From an uncultured Thermoplasmatales archaeon (GTDB taxonomy: Archaea; Thermoplasmatota; Penumbrarchaeia; Penumbrarchaeales; Penumbrarchaeaceae): a stretch of 64,000 bases of DNA. The notes under the pieces were generated by a model. The model had not been told where the DNA came from. It saw only the letters and a list, made by a program, of their open reading frames with translations, and ran no database searches. Each line of letters begins with the position of its first letter. Positions within the stretch are counted from its first letter, which is position 1. The stretch spans positions 10,492 through 74,491 of the forward strand of contig CAYULA010000014.1 of the NCBI GenBank assembly GCA_964445525.1. Direction: 5' to 3'. Shown piece by piece: positions 20,624 through 26,935 of this stretch. The translations under genes and the position numbers were made by a program.

Positions 20624-21613
20624 TCAAGCCCTTCCCTTGTCCTGTGTCTTCCATGCCCTGGGGTAGGTGCCAGTATCCATCAGCACCCTGGAAGGGGAAG
20701 CTGCCTGACCCTTGCCGCCTTTGATCATTTTCGATGTATCCATATCCGCCTTTCCCAGGGCGGTCAGCTCTCCTTTCATTGTCAGTATCGACACGACCTC
20801 TCCCTGTCTGATCCCGTCCTCCACCCCCGCTAATCCCGGAACACCAACGGGAGCTCCGTGGCAGACAGCATCCACTGCGGAATCCTTAAGAACAATACTC
20901 CTGAGGTGTCCCACCATCTCCTCTGCGGGTTTGACCACCTTTCTTATCAGCTCCTCATCACCGCTTTTGAAAATCTCCCACGCATCCCTGAGTTCCTGCA
21001 ATGTGAAGCTGTCACCTTCCCTGATGCTTCCTGACCTTGTCCTTCTCAATTCCGTCATGTTTCCCCCCACCCCCATAACCTCTCCCATATCGTGAAGTAG
21101 AGTTCTGACGTATGTCCCGGATTCGCACCCGATAAGCACCAGGAAATCGTTTTCCTCCGCATCCAGGACCTTCATGTAATCAATTCTTCTGGTCCTCAAC
21201 CCCCTCTTCACCGCGGACCTAACGGGAACCATCTGATATATCTCACCCGTGAAATCGGATACCAGCCTTTTCAAATCCTCCGCGTTCACACGGGAGTGAA
21301 GGTGCAAAATCGCAATATACTCCTTTCCCCCGGCAAGGGTGGTGTCAAGCAGCTTGACCGTATCACCGAGTGCAACCGGGAGAACTCCCGTTGTGTTGGG
21401 GTCCAGTGTTCCGTGGTGTCCCGCTTTCTCTATGCCCAGTATCTCCTTGATCCAGGATACCACCTGATGGCTGGTGGGTCCTCTGGGTTTGTCAATTACA
21501 ACCATTCCCTTTCTCAAAAGATCGGGGACCTTCCTTTCCCAGGGATTTGTACCGAAGCGAGGCTCCCTTGCATCGAGTACATTCATCTTCTCCGATTCCA
21601 GCGGGAGCTTCAT
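20624..21613 (-). CDS. cbf5: tRNA/rRNA pseudouridine synthase Cbf5 (TruB family with PUA domain)
   Basis: VVIDKPRGPTSHQVVSWIK...GHHGTLDPNTTGVLPVALG carries the catalytic Asp motif. A C-terminal PUA-like region is present. Confidence 0.9.
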   Translation of the reverse strand: MKLPLESEKMNVLDAREPRFGTNPWERKVPDLLRKGMVVIDKPRGPTSHQVVSWIKEILGIEKAGHHGTLDPNTTGVLPVALGDTVKLLDTTLAGGKEYIAILHLHSRVNAEDLKRLVSDFTGEIYQMVPVRSAVKRGLRTRRIDYMKVLDAEENDFLVLIGCESGTYVRTLLHDMGEVMGVGGNMTELRRTRSGSIREGDSFTLQELRDAWEIFKSGDEELIRKVVKPAEEMVGHLRSIVLKDSAVDAVCHGAPVGVPGLAGVEDGIRQGEVVSILTMKGELTALGKADMDTSKMIKGGKGQAASPSRVLMDTGTYPRAWKTQDKGRA

Positions 21614-21652: not shown

Positions 21653-22126
21653 TCAGGAAAGATGCTTTTTCAGCTTTCTTATCATCAGATCGTTCTTTTC
21701 TCTTAGCTCCTCGAAAACAGGCAGGACCTCCTCCATCTTCCTGGAATGCTTGATTTTTTTCCTGAACTTCTTGTAATTTCCGGAAAATTTCAGGGGATCC
21801 TTCATGTATTCATTCCTGGCTTCCCTCAAAACCTTGTGGTTTGACCTCTCTATCAGTATATTGAACAATCCCATGATCTCGGAATAGGAATCCAGAGCTT
21901 CGACGACAGGACCCGAGTAACCCTTTTCCTCCTCGCCGGATAGAATTATCTCCCCGAATAATCCCGGAACGATCCTCTCCCCCAGACCCCTGAAACATCT
22001 CTCGTTGGATAGTTCGAATCCTCCGCCGCAACGGGAACAATGAACGATCACCTTTCCATCGGAGTATTCAATTTTTCCACTGCAGTTACCCTTGTCCTTG
22101 AACAAACGCGATCTGATATTCAACAA
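21653..22126 (-). CDS. hypothetical protein with N-terminal Cys cluster
   Basis: 157-aa ORF with a TTG start and no N-terminal ATG. It has GNCSG...VHCSRCGG...ERC, then a Lys-rich helical tail. It is the last gene of the KaiC-like operon. The start is uncertain. Confidence 0.4.
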   Translation of the reverse strand: MLNIRSRLFKDKGNCSGKIEYSDGKVIVHCSRCGGGFELSNERCFRGLGERIVPGLFGEIILSGEEEKGYSGPVVEALDSYSEIMGLFNILIERSNHKVLREARNEYMKDPLKFSGNYKKFRKKIKHSRKMEEVLPVFEELREKNDLMIRKLKKHLS

Positions 22127-22200
22127 GCACTCGTCCTCATGGACAAGTTTAAATTTTGCTATTTTAATATGATCCCGTTATCCTACTCGGCGGATAAATT

Positions 22201-24138
22201 CTACTCTTCTTCGAGGAGCTCGTCTATATTTCCCAGAGCCTCGTCGAGGATCTTTCTGTGATCTTTTTTCCCGATACCCAGATCCATACCCTCGGTGTCC
22301 GGATCGATCTCACTTCCGCCGGACACTGTCTTTTTCACCACTTTTTTCCTGATCGGCCGTACCCTTCTCCCGGGATCTGGACTTTTTCCGGATCCGGATC
22401 CTTCGATATCCACATCATCCCCGCCCTGGCCTTTAGGATGCTCCTTTATCTTCCGCTTCACCTTTCTCCTGACCCTGGGTGCCGGTTTTTCTTCCTCTTC
22501 TTCGATCTCTTCCAGCTCGGGAACTCTGGCAACCAGGTTGGTCTCGTGTCCGTTGTCATCGGGTTCGATGGCCCTTTCCGGTGGGGACTCCACTGTTTCC
22601 GGAGGAAGCGGAGCGATGTCAGGTCCGTCCGGAATGATCATGTTGTCCCTTATCTGGAAAGGGAGCGGGTTTGCATCGAAGTCCACTCCGGAAAGGGATC
22701 TGATAACCATCTCCCTGTGAAACCTGCCTTTCTCCATCTTCTTGTTGATTTCCAGCGTTCCGTCGAAGATCTCCATTATTCTCGATTCGAGCTCCTTTGA
22801 CAGCGAATCCTTCTCCAGAAGGAAGAGGGATGCCATCTCGTCATCCTTGAACTTGGCTCTGAGCCTCTGGATGAAATTATATACCTGGCTGAATTCGAAT
22901 ATGTTGGTGGCGGGACCTATTATGTGAACGATCCCCATCTTGTTTGTAGAGTACGTGAGCTCCCTCAGACCCTTGTTGATGGCTATGCCGAGGTTTGAGA
23001 GGATTTTTGAGGATTTCAGAGCGTGTCCGTCCCTCTCCACCCCGATTATCCTCTCACCCCTCCAGCTGAACCAGTCAACTATCCTGAACCTTCCGCTTTC
23101 CTCCAGTTCATCGGGATCGAGCCCGTTGGATTTGAGCAGCATCCTTATGGATCTCGGAGGTTCCTTGGATAGGACCATAAGGGCGGAGGATCCGTTGTTC
23201 AAACCCCGGTTCAAAAGACCGGATATGAACATGTCTCGCTCTATTCCCGATGGAGAGATCAGTAGGATGGAGGCTCCTTTCGGTATGCCCCCTCCCATCT
23301 TCTTGTCCAGAAGTTCCAGTCCTGTGGATACCTTCTTGTTCAAAGCCCCGTCGAGTATATCCTCGTAAAGATTGTATTTCGATAAAAGTTCGTCCTTTCC
23401 CTCAAAGTGGAACTGGAAAACACTGGATGCTTTTTTCACCGCTTCCTCCTTTCCCAGAAGGAAGGTTGAAAGACCCACCATGGAGTTGAAAAGAGCAGAA
23501 AGGGCGGTTCTGACATCACCGGGTGATGCCTTGGCCCACATCTCCTTGTCCAGTTTCAGGGAATTATCCCTTGTGAGCTCAACGAATTTCAGTAATTCGT
23601 ATTTCTCCCTCATTATTGAGAGCTTCAGCTTGAACGCTGAAAGATCGGTATGGGTTGACAGATCCTTCAAATATTCCTGGAAAACCTTGTGGAACAGATC
23701 GAGTATCTCCTCGTGATCGGAAGATCCTCCCTTCTTTTCCATTGCCTCAATCAGACTTGACCTGAAAGGCTCATGTATCTGTTCCAGAAGGTCCTGCCTG
23801 CCCCTCACATCATCCGATAGCCTGATCATCTCCTCTTTCATTGAGGAGGAGATTATATCCCTTGCAAGCTCCTCTCCTATCAAAGATGAGATGAAGTCCA
23901 GTGCCTTCCTGAGAAATGCGGAAAGTGCTTCAAGTGATTCAAGGGAATCGGAAAGATTGTTTACAACCTTGCCCTCGTCCGTGATTGTGAATTTGACTAG
24001 TTTTGGATTTTCCACCCTTGCCCTCTCGAGTATTATTCTGAAGGTTGAAACCTCCAGTCTGAACTGACCTATCTCCGGCGATGTCATCTTGCCGATGAAG
24101 CTCTCCAGGAGCTTTCCGTAGATCAGAACATCATTCAT
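22201..24138 (-). CDS. KaiC/RecA-superfamily (COG0467-like) protein with dead P-loop, long helical N-domain and charged disordered tail
   Basis: 645 aa. The central block LDKKMGGGIPKGASILLISPSGIERDMFISGLL...ALMVLSKEPP aligns to the KaiC-like fold, but Walker A is SPSGIERD with no Lys. The C-terminal ~130 aa are K/R/E/P-rich low complexity. Confidence 0.7.
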   Translation of the reverse strand: MNDVLIYGKLLESFIGKMTSPEIGQFRLEVSTFRIILERARVENPKLVKFTITDEGKVVNNLSDSLESLEALSAFLRKALDFISSLIGEELARDIISSSMKEEMIRLSDDVRGRQDLLEQIHEPFRSSLIEAMEKKGGSSDHEEILDLFHKVFQEYLKDLSTHTDLSAFKLKLSIMREKYELLKFVELTRDNSLKLDKEMWAKASPGDVRTALSALFNSMVGLSTFLLGKEEAVKKASSVFQFHFEGKDELLSKYNLYEDILDGALNKKVSTGLELLDKKMGGGIPKGASILLISPSGIERDMFISGLLNRGLNNGSSALMVLSKEPPRSIRMLLKSNGLDPDELEESGRFRIVDWFSWRGERIIGVERDGHALKSSKILSNLGIAINKGLRELTYSTNKMGIVHIIGPATNIFEFSQVYNFIQRLRAKFKDDEMASLFLLEKDSLSKELESRIMEIFDGTLEINKKMEKGRFHREMVIRSLSGVDFDANPLPFQIRDNMIIPDGPDIAPLPPETVESPPERAIEPDDNGHETNLVARVPELEEIEEEEEKPAPRVRRKVKRKIKEHPKGQGGDDVDIEGSGSGKSPDPGRRVRPIRKKVVKKTVSGGSEIDPDTEGMDLGIGKKDHRKILDEALGNIDELLEEE

Positions 24139-24151
24139 TTCGTCTCACCGA

Positions 24152-24874
24152 TCAACCTATGACCTCGTCAGGGGACACCTCTATTCCATTATCCATGATG
24201 AGGAAAGGGTGTTTAAGGGGATCATGTTTGGTGAACCTCATCTTCTTGACGGTCAGCGTTCTTCTGTATTCTCCTGCAGTTGACTCGTAATCCATCTTGA
24301 TGAGGGAATCGGCTATGAACTCCTCTATTCCATACCTGGAATCGTTACCTCCGGTCACCTCTGAGATGATCACGGAGGTGATTCCGGATTCTTTTAAAAA
24401 TCTTGAAAACTTGAAGAGCTCCCTTCTCATCAGCTCATTGGATTTGTAGTAGACGCCGACCGCAGTGACGGAATCCAGAACAAGCCTCTTGGCCCCGCTG
24501 AAGGTGATGTGATTCTTGAGGAAATCCTGCAGGGTCTCGAAGCTGGCAAGGCCCCATTCAAGTTCCTCGGAGGAAGAGCATTCTATTCTCATCTTTCCAA
24601 GATCGATAAGGTATGCCTTGCCCTCCTTTTCCAGGGACTCAAGATCCATTCCGTAGGATCTGGCCGCTCTCAGGATCGAATCCCTGCTTTCCTCCAGAGT
24701 GAGGTATATGCTGGGTTCATCTTCAATCAATGCACCGTTGTGGACGTAATGTATGCCGAATAGCGATTTGGCACTGCCCGGAGGTCCTGTGATGAGATTG
24801 ATTGTCCCGTCCGGGAAACCGGATCCGATCAATTCGTCCATGCCCGGTATGTGGGTGGCCTTTCTGTTATTCAT
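24152..24874 (-). CDS. KaiC-like (RAD55/COG0467) ATPase
   Basis: It has IPGMDELIGSGFPDGTINLITGPPGSAKSLFGIHYV (intact Walker A) and the Walker B LVLDSV. The likely start, MNNRKATH at 24874, lies 2 nt after the upstream stop. The ORF extends to 24904. Confidence 0.85.
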   Translation of the reverse strand: MNNRKATHIPGMDELIGSGFPDGTINLITGPPGSAKSLFGIHYVHNGALIEDEPSIYLTLEESRDSILRAARSYGMDLESLEKEGKAYLIDLGKMRIECSSSEELEWGLASFETLQDFLKNHITFSGAKRLVLDSVTAVGVYYKSNELMRRELFKFSRFLKESGITSVIISEVTGGNDSRYGIEEFIADSLIKMDYESTAGEYRRTLTVKKMRFTKHDPLKHPFLIMDNGIEVSPDEVIG

Positions 24875-25172
24875 TCTCTGTTTCCTCCTTGTAGTGATCT
24901 TCAATGATCTCCCCGTAGACAGATCTTATTTCCTCCGTCTTTCCGCTGCCGATGAGGAGAGAGGCTTCCTCGAGTATGGAATCGGATACCATCAAGGCGG
25001 AATCCTCTGTCAATACACTGCTTCCCTGGGATATTTTCTCGTACTGCCTTTGAACGATAAATCTTGAAAGAACCCCGATGTAAGCGGAAAGGACCTTCTC
25101 GAAATCCTTCAAGATGGGATGGGGAATTCTGTCGATCTCTCCCGAGTTGATCTCCTGGGCGACAATGCTCAT
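24867..25172 (-). CDS. hypothetical 101-aa protein
   Basis: The ORF shares an ATGA overlap with the upstream wHTH gene (25169-25172) and abuts the KaiC-like gene. No family recognised. Confidence 0.5.
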   Translation of the reverse strand: MSIVAQEINSGEIDRIPHPILKDFEKVLSAYIGVLSRFIVQRQYEKISQGSSVLTEDSALMVSDSILEEASLLIGSGKTEEIRSVYGEIIEDHYKEETENE

Positions 25173-25654
25173 TCCTCGATCACCTCACCAACACTTTCCA
25201 ACAGAACATCCACTTTCTCCTCCAGGAGTGATTTCTTGGCGCATAATCTCAAAAGATTGGATGCCATTGCATCTCCTCCGACCCTTTTCAATGAACTGTA
25301 GAGGCAGATCAATTCGTTGAAGGGATTGCCGTTGGTCTCAATGTCGTTCAAAAGAGTTGTCCGGCCCAGTATCATCGAGGCCATCTCCCTGAGCTCAATG
25401 TTGATGTCTTTGAGATACCTTTCCTCGATGTTCTTATCCATCTTGAGCTTGTACTGTCCCCAGCCGACCCTCTCCACCAATCCCTCGGATCTGAGTCTGC
25501 TGACGATGGATGTAACGAGCTGAAGGTCCATGTCCAGTTCGGTGGATATTTCCTTGGGGGAGATGAGGTCGAGCGGCCTTTCGGTGAAGATGGAGGCGAT
25601 CCTGTCCGTTTTGGACTCCTTCATCCTTCCCCTTTTCGGCCTTTTCATATACAT
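25169..25654 (-). CDS. winged-helix (MarR/TrmB-like) DNA-binding protein with uncharacterised C-domain
   Basis: ISPKEISTELDMDLQLVTSIVSRLRSEGLVERVGWGQYKL is a typical wHTH. The start is ambiguous: the ORF extends to 25729, with internal ATGs at 25654 and 25648. Confidence 0.6.
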   Translation of the reverse strand: MYMKRPKRGRMKESKTDRIASIFTERPLDLISPKEISTELDMDLQLVTSIVSRLRSEGLVERVGWGQYKLKMDKNIEERYLKDINIELREMASMILGRTTLLNDIETNGNPFNELICLYSSLKRVGGDAMASNLLRLCAKKSLLEEKVDVLLESVGEVIEE

Positions 25655-25789
25655 ACCCCGACCCTGAGAAATGCTGATAATTCGAACAGCCCGGGCAACC
25701 ATATATAACAGTTTTGTGATATTTCTCAAGGAGCAACTTTAACCGACCGCATACGTTAAAACCGATCATATTATTCCAAGGGAGTTCCC

Positions 25790-26935
25790 ATGGAAGAAGA
25801 AGGCAGGTCTGAAGCCGAGGTCCTGGAAATGGTCGAGGAACTCAAGGAGAAGGATATCTCCTTCGGGTCAGGAAGGATCTTCGGATCAATGTGCACCACT
25901 CCCCATCCTCTGGCAGTCAGGATAAATGCGCGGATGTCCGAGGCGAATCTGGGTAACCCGGGTTTATATCCCGGAACACTGGAAATGGAGAGGCAGGTTA
26001 TTGGGAATCTTGGTTCCATATTGCATCTGGACAGGCCGTTCGGACATGTTCTATCCGGCGGAACCGAGGCCAATATCACGGCACTATACAGAGCAAAGAG
26101 AATGACCGGTAAGAGGAAGGTGATCTTTCCAAGGTCCGCCCATTTCTCGGTCCTGAAAGCTGTAAAACTGCTAGACCTGAAGCCTGTTCCCATCGAACTG
26201 AATGATCATTTCTCCATATCACTGGATCACCTGGAGGACTCCCTTGATGAGGAGGTTGCCTGTGTTTTTACCGTGGCGGGAACCACCGAGCTGGGCGCTG
26301 TGGATAGAATCAAAAGGGTGTCCGAGATAGTCGGGAATGTTCCGCTGCATGTGGATGCCGCCTTCGGGGGCTTCGTCCTCCCCTTTCTGGAAGAAATGGA
26401 TATGATAGAAGATGACCTCAGGAGATGGGATTTCAGGGTGGACGGGGTTACCACCTTATCCGTGGACCCGCACAAAATGGGAGGTTCCACAATTCCCGCC
26501 GGATGTTTGCTTTTCAGAGAGGAATACCCATTGAAGTATCTGGCCGTGAGCTCTCCATATCTTACCAATACCAAAGCATACACACTTGCGGGTACGAGGG
26601 ATTCCGGAGCTGTTTGCGGTGCTTTCGCCGTAATGGAGCTTCTGGGTAGAAAGGGTTACAGGGAACGGGTCAGAAGCTGTATGGACAATACATTTTACCT
26701 GAAAACAGGTCTCGAGAAACTGGGGTTGGAACCCGTGATGGATCCTGTAATGAACATAGTTGCAGTCCACCATTGTGATCCTGATAACGTCCAGAGTTTG
26801 ATGGAGGAGGAAGGATATTACCTCTCGAGGGTCAAACAGCCATCAGCATTGAGATTTGTTGTAATGCCCCATGTTAACAAGAAATCCATAGATAATATGC
26901 TCCCCGTTCTGGATAAAGTCTTAAAAAGGGCTTGA
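25790..26935 (+). CDS. mfnA: PLP-dependent L-tyrosine/L-aspartate decarboxylase MfnA
   Basis: 381 aa, a group II decarboxylase with the PLP-Lys motif SVDPHKMG and GGTEANI. AAGGGAG precedes the ATG. Confidence 0.9.
   Translation: MEEEGRSEAEVLEMVEELKEKDISFGSGRIFGSMCTTPHPLAVRINARMSEANLGNPGLYPGTLEMERQVIGNLGSILHLDRPFGHVLSGGTEANITALYRAKRMTGKRKVIFPRSAHFSVLKAVKLLDLKPVPIELNDHFSISLDHLEDSLDEEVACVFTVAGTTELGAVDRIKRVSEIVGNVPLHVDAAFGGFVLPFLEEMDMIEDDLRRWDFRVDGVTTLSVDPHKMGGSTIPAGCLLFREEYPLKYLAVSSPYLTNTKAYTLAGTRDSGAVCGAFAVMELLGRKGYRERVRSCMDNTFYLKTGLEKLGLEPVMDPVMNIVAVHHCDPDNVQSLMEEEGYYLSRVKQPSALRFVVMPHVNKKSIDNMLPVLDKVLKRA

Follow-up and report, generated by a model that had tools for sequence, protein, structure and literature searches.

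A cassette of four minus-strand genes, g1-g4, lies in the interval between mfnA and cbf5 in the 64-kb window, which is the whole stretch of DNA from an uncultured Thermoplasmatota archaeon that was analysed (Table 1). The initial annotation described five chained genes on this strand. All five open reading frames are real and lie at the coordinates given there. Most of the junctions were also as described, namely the 4-nt ATGA overlap of g1 and g2, the 13-nt gap between g3 and g4 and the 74-nt gap between g4 and g5. The reported 2-nt gap between g2 and g3, however, is an 8-nt overlap at ATGAATAA. The flanking genes that were checked are mfnA, a RraA/OMP-decarboxylase fusion, cbf5 and a gene for a FixG_C-like protein.

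Table 1. Genes and features of the cassette locus, in positions of the window
Feature	Position	Strand	Remarks
Cassette, g1-g4		-	four genes, mfnA-cbf5 interval
Palindrome TATCACA-N4-TGTTATA	25704..25721	-	imperfect; putative operator/promoter of the cassette
g1, 161 aa	25169..25654	-	basic N-terminus, probable winged helix (~27-72), helical C-terminal half
g2, 101 aa	24867..25172	-	overlaps g1 and g3
g3, 240 aa	24152..24874	-	single-domain KaiC-type ATPase, catalytic motifs intact
g3 Walker A, GPPGSAKS	24764-24787	-	motif match
g4, 645 aa	22201-24138	-	N-domain, iKaiC domain, disordered linker, C-terminal helix
g4 N-terminal domain, residues 1-265	23344..24138	-	two tandem helices/beta-hairpin/helices units
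g4 inactivated KaiC (iKaiC) domain, residues 266-503	22630..23343	-	PF06745 and fold match
g4 degenerate P-loop, SPSGIERD	23233-23256	-	replaces P-loop
g4 disordered linker, residues 507-625	22264..22620	-	pLDDT below 50
g4 C-terminal amphipathic helix, residues 627-642	22213..22260	-	consensus IL.EA..TID.LL
g5, 157 aa	21653..22126	-	Cys-cluster protein; adjoins the cassette, not a member

Extent and inheritance of the unit

The tight linkage of g1-g4, with overlaps or gaps of 13-23 nt, holds across 17 related genomes. When the junctions were compared over 14-17 genomes, the g1/g2 overlap was 4 nt (1 nt in two loci, and a 1-nt gap in one), the g2/g3 overlap was 1-11 nt (41-49 nt in two loci, as the reading frames were called) and g3 and g4 were separated by 13-23 nt. 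Judged from this arrangement, g1-g4 are translationally coupled. Orthologues of g1, g3 (g3-type) and g4 are found in the same 18 genomes, and full-length g1 occurs only in cassette-bearing genomes, in one copy per genome. In a sister genus (genus g2) all four genes are absent and mfnA directly faces g5-cbf5. The fifth gene is kept beside cbf5 at three such loci (L050-L052), while a fourth, L053, ends at a contig edge. Because mfnA faces g5-cbf5 where g1-g4 are missing, g5 is a separable neighbour, and the five-gene unit first proposed has to be reduced to four genes. The gap that precedes g5 is AT-rich and contains a TATA-like sequence, and C30, C33 and C44 are invariant in the encoded protein. 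Judged from the gene content of these loci, g1-g4 are inherited or lost as one block.

Gene g2 varies the most within this block. It has no Pfam match, and its sole NCBIfam match, NF003142, is far below threshold (E=0.055, 12.6 bits against a 198-bit cut-off). Its orthologues are 28-49% identical and have the motifs LIGVLSRFIV and LLIG in common, and one homologue was found outside the family, in an unrelated context (G026). Three loci (L023, L024 and L029) are without g2, and there g1 abuts g3 or sits 130 nt away. Since g2 has been lost in three genomes, the unit of some species consists of three genes, and by this distribution g2 is a dispensable accessory.

Gene order is conserved among the relatives, as are overlaps and promoter motif, and by sequence comparison their combined conservation in 17 genomes exceeds chance. 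It could still be argued that there is no functional unit here and that adjacency reflects family-level synteny only. The genes mfnA, cbf5 and the next gene also keep their order, so that at this evolutionary depth nothing can be concluded from gene order by itself. However, the start/stop overlaps are conserved, g1-g4 are gained or lost jointly and are strictly co-distributed, and analogous trios occur in unrelated contexts. This reading is already disfavoured, and we regard it as very improbable. The presence or absence of a four-gene block between conserved housekeeping genes is also what would be expected of a mobile or defence cassette, in which an ATPase, a pseudo-ATPase and a DNA-binding protein were gained as an island, and g1 has weak PADLOC matches to winged helices of the AbiEi, CasR and CARF types. 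However, g2, g3 and g4 have no PADLOC match, none of the identified genes of the locus codes for an integrase, and the cassette is always found at the same place. In addition, the cassette proteins and the products of the flanking genes lose identity in parallel, which is expected for vertical descent. There is very little likelihood that the cassette is of this kind.

The KaiC-fold pair

The assignment of g3 as a KaiC-like ATPase with intact Walker A and Walker B motifs is confirmed by its match to the Pfam KaiC family (PF06745, E=1.2e-62). Besides Walker A it has the catalytic pair within LTLEES, Walker B within LVLDS and KKMRF, which we take to be the KaiC 'K.R' finger motif; as far as its sequence tells, g3 retains every ATPase motif. 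It is the best-conserved gene of the cassette, with orthologues that are 72-93% identical, and it aligns to KaiC with 129 bits for CI and 67 bits for CII.

Residues 270-501 of g4 also match PF06745 (E=3.4e-18, 66 bits). The initial annotation noted SPSGIERD in place of a P-loop, and the losses go further. In addition to the replacement of GK[ST] by E-R-D, the first catalytic Glu is gone (EE to K-E, in LSKEP) and the Walker B Asp is a His (IVHII). The model matches the folds of PH0284, SSO2452, KaiC CI and FlaH with a target TM of about 0.8. The ATPase motifs of g4 have been lost and the complete KaiC fold has been kept. The signature DW[FY]SW..ERI[IV]G[VI]E is common to distant members and marks g4 as belonging to a recognisable, predicted inactive KaiC subfamily. 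In g4 the aligned counterpart of the g3 motif KKMRF reads RSLSG, which speaks against a mixed ring that is catalytically productive. Over its first half, the KaiC domain of g4 has a slightly better alignment with CII than with CI; since g3 resembles CI, the two proteins could mimic a split CI/CII stack.

The domain is flanked as had been described, by a helical N-domain of ~265 aa and a low-confidence tail of 119 residues rich in K/R/E/D/P/G. The N-domain has a pLDDT of 87 in AlphaFold models, and its topology is repeated in residues 3-111 and 140-245, although the hhalign match between the two repeats is weak (E=0.015 over 85 columns). It has no PDB fold match (top Foldseek E=0.35, TM below 0.25) and is very rare, with 19 matches among 1.84 billion representative proteins. 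All eight distant N-domain proteins of at least 500 aa have a KaiC domain immediately after it, and two short ones (269 and 206 aa) have no Pfam match. The C-terminal parts of the N-domain and KaiC proteins vary and include TPR plus a Zn ribbon, or a second KaiC domain. The linker of g4 (K+R 23, D+E 27, P 14, G 13) is net acidic overall, yet K/R-rich patches are present in g4. Its length and sequence are not alignable among orthologues, and the predicted C-terminal helix (pLDDT ~78) is the sole conserved block past residue 505 in 23 orthologues.

The winged-helix protein and the promoter element

That g1 encodes a winged-helix protein is supported by several weak Pfam matches at residues 27-72 (MarR_2, HTH_24, MarR and Fe_dep_repress). 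The best of these, MarR_2, has E=1.8e-4 and 22 bits, below the Pfam cut-off of 27, and the g1 profile matches MarR-type FabT in the PDB with E=0.007. The palindrome overlaps a TATA-like box ~50 nt upstream of the g1 ATG. Since translation of g1 has to begin downstream of the TATA/operator, TTG 25729 was rejected as its start codon and ATG 25654 (or 25648) is taken instead.

The palindrome occurs once in the window against 0 expected. Among the 17 orthologous loci with an assembled g1 upstream region (L023 starts inside g1 and was left out), the exact palindrome is found at the same position in 16, and L013 has one substitution. The remainder of the intergenic region is not alignable among these loci. 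The palindrome is absent from the cassette-less loci L050-L053. Three genomes of the genus have the same motif at a second site, 38-46 nt ahead of a gene for a TPR protein. Further genomic matches are few, and a reversed-pattern control also gives occasional matches. Position and conservation suggest that g1 binds the palindrome; it could also be an unusually conserved BRE/TATA element or the site of another factor.

Could g3 and g4 be a recombination or repair mediator pair that acts on DNA in the manner of RadA paralogues (cf. Rad55-Rad57 and archaeal Ral/aRadC), with the g4 tail and the g1 winged helix binding DNA? Databases name the orthologues 'RAD55 family ATPase', the RadA paralogue SSO2452 (2w0m) is among the matches of g3 (E=4.7e-23) as well as the best fold matches of g4, and the K/R-rich patches of g4 would fit such a role. 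However, g3 is far nearer to KaiC (E ~1e-57) than to RadA/RadB models (E=0.0015 and 0.077, far below cut-off), the flanks mfnA and cbf5 are not repair genes and none adjoins the cassette, and the tail is acidic on the whole. A palindrome embedded in a promoter together with a winged helix suits regulation better than repair, and the mediator reading is unlikely.

Relation to known KaiC systems and a proposed switch

Other Thermoplasmatota have analogous trios of a regulator, a KaiC and a dead KaiC, in genomic surroundings other than this one. For example, at L070/L071 an iKaiC of 571 aa accompanies a protein of 83 aa and a KaiC that has 57% identity with g3. At L049, L068 and L069 a winged-helix protein is followed by a KaiC 51-53% identical to g3 and then a giant protein, and the genes abut. 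The giant protein starts with a g4-type iKaiC with the signature ERIIGVERDG..LK, a segment demonstrated for L049 alone among the three. In these operons, however, the giant protein of 1700-2400 aa has the dead KaiC at its cytoplasmic end and also carries Zn ribbons and LTD/DUF11 surface domains. The dead KaiC of the cassette belongs to a soluble protein of 645 aa, which has an N-terminal domain in place of these. The regulators have no detectable homology with g1 beyond the HTH. For distant g4-like proteins in G026, G031 and G035, the adjacent available stretch, which in L030 and L031 is a short contig, contains no KaiC gene, so the active/dead pairing is not universal.

It may be asked whether the cassette has an accessory role in a surface or type-IV-pilus-like machine, in which the KaiC pair regulates a secretion-type ATPase as ArlH does ArlI and g5 is the link. 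In two other families, genes for T2SSE-type secretion ATPases are directly preceded by genes for distant g5 homologues (hhalign E=8e-8). The nearest KaiC relatives of g3 elsewhere adjoin giant surface proteins, and ArlH/FlaH is a structural neighbour of g4. However, the sister genus keeps g5 without g1-g4, no T2SSE, pilin or archaellum gene is present among the flanking genes checked and the g4 model has no membrane or extracellular part. The ArlH model reaches 40 bits against a cut-off of 215, and we consider an accessory role quite unlikely.

In profile searches, ArlH, GvpD, circadian KaiC and PADLOC defence models gave sub-threshold matches or none, and the cassette is assigned to none of the first three. 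ArlH (FlaH) is a single-domain KaiC fold that regulates a partner via nucleotide and phosphorylation state, as is proposed here for the cassette. The partner of ArlH is the archaellum ATPase ArlI, whereas that of g3 would be a dead paralogue and a DNA-binding protein, and no arlI or arlJ is found near the cassette. Like the cyanobacterial circadian KaiC, to whose CI domain it aligns in full length, g3 keeps Walker A, the EE pair, Walker B and K.R. Circadian KaiC is a tandem CI-CII double ring, whereas the cassette domains are separate polypeptides and the second is dead. With 127 bits (cut-off 546) and 167 bits (cut-off 408) the KaiC models stay far short of their thresholds, and there is no kaiA or kaiB in the cassette locus. 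A RecA/KaiC-fold pseudo-ATPase retained as a structural partner is also seen in Rad55-Rad57 and in Elongator Elp4-6, and g4 and its relatives have weak, sub-threshold matches to PAXNEB (Elp4), but those complexes differ in biological context, with a DNA or tRNA role.

Makarova, Galperin and Koonin are said to have proposed, in mBio in 2017, that archaeal KaiC-like ATPases and their iKaiC partners are signal transduction hubs. The cassette resembles such hubs in that an active single-domain KaiC adjoins a KaiC-fold protein without ATPase motifs and a winged-helix protein. The genome is also rich in KaiC paralogues, with 20 PF06745 matches, among which RadA/RadB-type RecA-superfamily genes may be included. 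It differs from them in its own duplicated N-domain, its charged disordered tail with a terminal helix, the small g2 and the conserved, putative palindromic operator. This variant has, to our knowledge, no characterised member. The initial annotation did not recognise the architecture as a characterised system, but KaiC/iKaiC with DNA-binding partners is a concept already published. As 'KaiC-based signal transduction', with inactivated KaiC domains as archaeal signalling components, it is cited and used in PMC5847659.

The view that the active/dead KaiC pair and the winged-helix protein form a self-contained module is upheld by coupling, block gain or loss, co-distribution and the analogous trios. 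On balance we lean, modestly, towards g1-g4 being a self-contained, probably self-regulated KaiC-based switch of the KaiC/iKaiC kind proposed by Makarova et al. (2017). In this switch g3 would form a KaiC-type ring, hydrolyse ATP and probably autophosphorylate. The dead KaiC domain of g4 would bind g3, either as a stacked ring that mimics cyanobacterial CI/CII or in a mixed assembly. It would link the nucleotide state of g3 to the duplicated N-domain, which may be an input or adaptor, and to the charged, flexible tail, whose conserved terminal helix would serve for docking. Through its state the complex would control g1, as a dimeric winged-helix protein, and g2 may act as a dispensable adaptor. 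For autorepression, g1 would sit on the palindrome at the TATA box of its own gene, and it may also bind at a few other promoters. The conserved, putative palindromic operator would give this variant a concrete, testable output.

Extent and conservation of the gene unit

The window lies on contig C14. The metagenome-assembled genome to which this contig belongs has 3.56 Mb and is 89.9% complete. The initial annotation described a five-gene operon, and all five minus-strand open reading frames were found where it had placed them: g1 encodes a winged-helix protein, g2 a small protein, g3 an intact KaiC-like ATPase, g4 a protein with a dead KaiC-like domain and g5 a Cys-cluster protein. The ATGA overlap between g1 and g2, the 13-nt gap between g3 and g4 and the 74-nt gap between g4 and g5 were described correctly. 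The 2-nt gap claimed between g2 and g3 is instead an 8-nt overlap, ATGAATAA.

Positions of the five genes, the flanking genes and the exact putative operator sites discussed with them
Feature	Position	Strand	Size or remark
g1	25169-25654	minus	161 aa
g2	24867-25172	minus	101 aa
g3	24152-24874	minus	240 aa
g4	22201-24138	minus	645 aa
g5	21653-22126	minus	157 aa
mfnA-like PLP decarboxylase gene	25790-26935		divergent flank of the cassette
cbf5	20624-21613		flank on the g5 side
Putative operator TATCACA-N4-TGTTATA	25704-25721		~50 nt 5' of the g1 start codon (ATG)
Operator copy at TPR gene, source genome G000	G000:C27:41100-41117 (L077:1502-1519)
Operator copy at TPR gene, genome G001	G001:C190:4247-4264
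Operator copy at TPR gene, genome G003	G003:C25:322-339

The order of the locus, from the divergent mfnA through g1-g2-g3-g4-g5 to cbf5 and the gene after it, is kept in 17 genomes, which represent six genera of the family to which the archaeon belongs. The spacing is also similar across loci. g1 and g2 share 4 nt, except for two loci with a 1-nt overlap and one with a 1-nt gap; g2 and g3 overlap by 1-11 nt (41-49 nt in two loci by ORF calls), and g3 and g4 are 13-23 nt apart. The distances are 32-111 nt between g4 and g5 (475 nt in one split locus) and 14-65 nt between g5 and cbf5. In the genome G004 (L014 / G004:C19:14874-16863) the g4 orthologue is divided into two open reading frames, one of 530 aa and a separate one for the tail, the cause being a frameshift or else a fault in the assembly.

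Synteny alone proves little because the housekeeping flanks are equally conserved, and the genes could be neighbors without forming a unit. This explanation is disfavored by the conserved coupling, the absence of the genes as a block and their co-distribution, which establish g1-g4 as a unit. Four genomes of a sister genus (76-90% complete) possess cbf5 and have no orthologue of g1, g2 or g4, nor of g3, for which the best match is 32% identical. On three contigs from this genus the divergent mfnA is followed directly by g5-cbf5, therefore g1-g4 are absent exactly as a block and g5 is retained. Full-length g1 occurs in one copy per genome, exactly in the genomes with g3 and g4, and in 280-odd other sampled genomes of the phylum it was not found, the matches there being weak and limited to the HTH region. 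It has thus been shown that g1-g4 are a coupled cassette inherited as a block, and the unit first proposed with five genes has four.

The loci of the sister genus, which hold g5 without the cassette, rule out g5 as a fifth member. It is preceded by its own AT-rich gap with a TATA-like sequence and matches no family in Pfam or NCBIfam. An accessory role in a pilus or in secretion, reached through g5, is disfavored since g5 is separable from the cassette. The g5 family has three invariant Cys residues and a PGF.G.IIL motif. Distant homologues (L072:1486-2052 and L073:1375-1980; hhalign E=8e-8) are present in two other families of the class, directly upstream of, or overlapping the start of, genes for T2SSE-type secretion ATPases; within the cassette-bearing family g5 always precedes cbf5 instead.

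Within the cassette, g2 is dispensable. It is absent from L023 (G020), L024 (G009) and L029 (G022), loci from three species of one genus in which other species retain it; in two of these loci g1 and g3 abut or overlap, and in the third they are 130 nt apart. No Pfam match was found for g2, and its single NCBIfam match is far below threshold (E=0.055). The proposal that g2 or the C-terminal half of g1 is a free repeat of the g4 N-domain is unsupported (hhalign E=0.04-0.4), as is homology of g2 with an 83-aa gene product at the locus L070 (E=0.032). A 136-aa gene adjoining the g2 homologue of G026 was rejected as a relative of g1.

The active and inactivated KaiC domains

Both g3 and g4 match the KaiC family PF06745 above its curated cut-off of 26.6 bits, g3 with 211.7 bits (E=1.2e-62) and g4 with 66.3 bits over residues 270-501. 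g3 is a single-domain KaiC-type ATPase. Its Walker A (GPPGSAKS) and Walker B (LVLDS) are intact, as the initial annotation stated, and the catalytic Glu pair (LTLEES) and the K.R motif are likewise kept. When Walker A (GxxxxGK[ST]), the catalytic Glu pair and the Walker B Asp were required together, g3 qualified and g4 did not. As the initial annotation had it, SPSGIERD replaces the P-loop in g4; in addition, the Glu pair reads K-E (LSKEP) and the Walker B Asp is a His (IVHII). The KaiC/RecA fold is nevertheless complete in the AlphaFold model of g4, which was built on 29 homologues, and Foldseek aligns it with a target TM of ~0.8 to PH0284, SSO2452, KaiC CI and FlaH. g4 therefore keeps the KaiC fold and has lost the ATPase motifs, which is what iKaiC, the inactivated KaiC-like domain of Makarova 2017, is said to denote. 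Its degenerate P-loop, G.E[KR][DN], is kept in 23 orthologues and in distant members, and in the KaiC-domain alignment these proteins form a coherent iKaiC subfamily with this P-loop, a lost Glu pair and the signature DW[FY]SW..ERI[IV]G[VI]E. The association with an active partner and a DNA-binding protein is also found: a 13-nt gap separates g4 from g3 upstream of it, the winged-helix gene g1 belongs to the unit, and this arrangement recurs in 17 genomes. The source genome has 20 PF06745 matches above the cut-off, three of them besides g4 in open frames of 479-719 aa (contigs C19, C34 and C50), which fits a large family of KaiC paralogues.

Comparison with characterized systems placed g3 below the model cut-offs for ArlH, GvpD and circadian KaiC. 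Circadian KaiC has two tandem KaiC domains, whereas g3 has one, and the scores for the circadian models TIGR02655 (127.6 bits vs 546.25) and NF006799 (167.3 vs 408) are low; g3 is also below the thermo_KaiC cut-off, and no KaiA- or KaiB-like gene is found among the identifiable genes in and adjoining the cassette. The ArlH/FlaH models gave 40.1 bits (NF052589; cut-off 215) and 42.5 bits (NF004723; cut-off 194), and arlH genes belong to arl clusters that also contain arlI and arlJ while the neighbors of the cassette are mfnA and cbf5. GvpD (PF07088, cut-off 24 bits) gave 15.6 bits for g3 and no match for g4. The database name "RAD55 family" and the presence of SSO2452 among the fold neighbors would suit a RadA-paralogue-type repair pair, a reading disfavored by the much stronger similarity to KaiC, the RadA and RadB models reaching only E=0.0015 (17 bits vs 403) and E=0.077, and by the genomic context. 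A defense island was rejected: PADLOC-DB 2.0 has no match for g2, g3, g4 or g5 and only weak generic winged-helix similarities for g1, and the cassette keeps to one locus and is inherited vertically.

The initial annotation did not recognize the architecture as a characterized system. The pairing of an active with an inactivated KaiC, with DNA-binding partners, is however an already published concept, which is cited and used in PMC5847659, and the cassette opens no new category. What is new is a soluble iKaiC carrying a rare duplicated N-domain without a fold match in the PDB, a charged g4 tail ending in a conserved helix, a small optional partner (g2), a precisely conserved putative operator, and natural variants without the cassette or without g2 that define the core.

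Residues 1-265 of g4 are predicted with confidence (pLDDT 87, AlphaFold) and are modeled as two tandem units, in each of which a beta-hairpin stands between sets of helices. The alignment of one half with the other is weak (hhalign E=0.015), and Foldseek found no match to this domain in the PDB (best E=0.35, TM <0.25). A profile of the domain has 19 matches only among 1.84 billion representative proteins. In all eight distant matches of at least 500 aa the KaiC domain follows the N-domain directly, and is itself followed by nothing, by TPR repeats plus Zn ribbons or by a second KaiC domain; two short matches have no Pfam match. At the other end, residues 507-625 are of low confidence, charged, Pro/Gly-rich and variable between orthologues, and residues 627-642 form a conserved amphipathic helix. 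Nearly all g4 orthologues extend ~20 residues beyond this helix to a K/R-rich end; g4 of the window stops directly after it (..ELLEEE; 22201-22215).

The putative regulator and the putative operator

Residues 27-72 of g1 match several HTH families, all weakly and below the curated cut-offs (MarR_2 22 bits vs 27; HTH_24 18.3 vs 21.9), and its profile matches FabT in the PDB with E=0.007. g1 is probably a DNA-binding protein. When the mfnA-g1 spacers were aligned by eye, one block of the type AAATATCACAAAA[AC]TGTTATATA was near-invariant across genera and the remainder was unalignable. The core of this block, TATCACA-N4-TGTTATA, is an imperfect inverted repeat (6/7 positions) whose right arm is a TATA-like box. 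It is present once in the 64-kb window, where none is expected. Among 17 orthologous loci with an assembled g1 upstream region, 16 have an exact copy and L013 has one substitution; L023, which starts within g1, stands outside the count. The cassette-less loci do not have the motif. Its geometry is what would be expected if a dimeric winged-helix protein occluded the promoter, and we infer that g1 is the protein that binds it.

Exact matches to the operator are rare genome-wide, with 1-3 in cassette-bearing genomes and none in the genomes of the sister genus. A second copy lies 38-46 nt upstream of a gene for a 404-aa TPR protein in the source genome and in two others of its genus. This protein may be a partner or co-regulated because distant proteins with the N-domain and iKaiC carry fused TPR repeats. 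A reversed-pattern control for the genome-wide search was not zero, so a wider regulon is a lead only, and among the few matches the TPR-gene site is the sole one worth following. Separately, the promoter region of a gene for an AAA_14/DUF4143 (COG1373-type) ATPase in the source genome (G000:C82:2860-2925; L076:1485-1540) has three ATATCACA/TGTGATAT half-sites, which include both the perfect palindrome TGTGATAT-TGCA-ATATCACA and a copy of the cassette operator with one mismatch. In another genus, two genomes also have exact operator-like sites (G018:C99:171-188 and G023:C72:37894-37911; L079, L080), located just 3' of a pair of glycosyltransferase genes that are orthologous between them.

Relatives, proposed mechanism and implications

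Other Thermoplasmatota, as well as a record with the label "Methanobacteriota archaeon", have KaiC proteins 51-57% identical to g3 beside g4-type dead KaiC domains. In L049, L068 and L069 a winged-helix gene is followed by a KaiC gene and a gene for a giant protein of 1700-2400 aa. The comparison of the giant proteins with g4 covered that of L049, whose N-terminus matches g4 residues 313-430 (hhalign E=5e-10); Zn ribbons and LTD/DUF11 surface domains come after this part. Homology between g1 and the regulators of these trios was rejected, as the HTH alone aligns (E=0.012, 0.2). In L070 and L071 an 83-aa gene precedes a KaiC gene and a gene for a 571-aa iKaiC with a Zn ribbon that is 35% identical to g4 over 218 residues. 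The trios therefore suggest a conserved core of a regulator, a g3-type KaiC and a g4-type iKaiC with interchangeable accessory domains. The pairing is frequent and not obligatory, since no KaiC gene adjoins class-level g4-like proteins in the available stretch of G026, G031 and G035, two of these three contigs being short.

As read from the sequences, the cassette combines one competent and one dead KaiC domain with a conserved palindrome over the promoter. It is proposed that g3 forms an ATP-driven ring and that the dead KaiC domain of g4 binds it. g4 would then link g3 to the N-domain, as input or adaptor, and to the tethered C-terminal helix, and the state of the assembly may govern g1 at its own promoter. 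The whole of g3 can be aligned to cyanobacterial KaiC CI (129 bits; 67 bits to CII), and the first half of the g4 KaiC domain aligns slightly better to CII than to CI. A split CI/CII-like stack of the two proteins is attractive for this reason, and the case that the alignments make for it is thin. In the KaiC-domain alignment the K.R motif of g3 reads R.S in g4, which presumably argues against a productive mixed ring.

A bolder possibility is that the cassette works autonomously as a minimal transcriptional switch or hourglass timer driven by ATP. An active g3 ring resembling CI would stack on a dead CII-like g4 ring, the duplicated N-domain, of a kind not seen before, would provide g4 with a new sensor fold, and the tethered helix at the g4 C-terminus would gate the repressor g1 at the palindrome over its own TATA box. 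That all of these parts hold jointly is improbable; if they did, the cassette would be a closed feedback loop with KaiABC-like logic built from different parts.

KaiC-like ATPases are the most expanded candidate signaling proteins in archaea, and to our knowledge the input, partner or output is known for almost none of them. Here an active ATPase, a dead partner with a distinct accessory domain, a DNA-binding protein and a near-invariant putative operator are found together, and the sister genus that lacks all four genes, together with the three species that have lost g2, defines the core parts. Such a compact soluble cassette leads to specific in vitro predictions that involve four small recombinant proteins and a 20-bp DNA.
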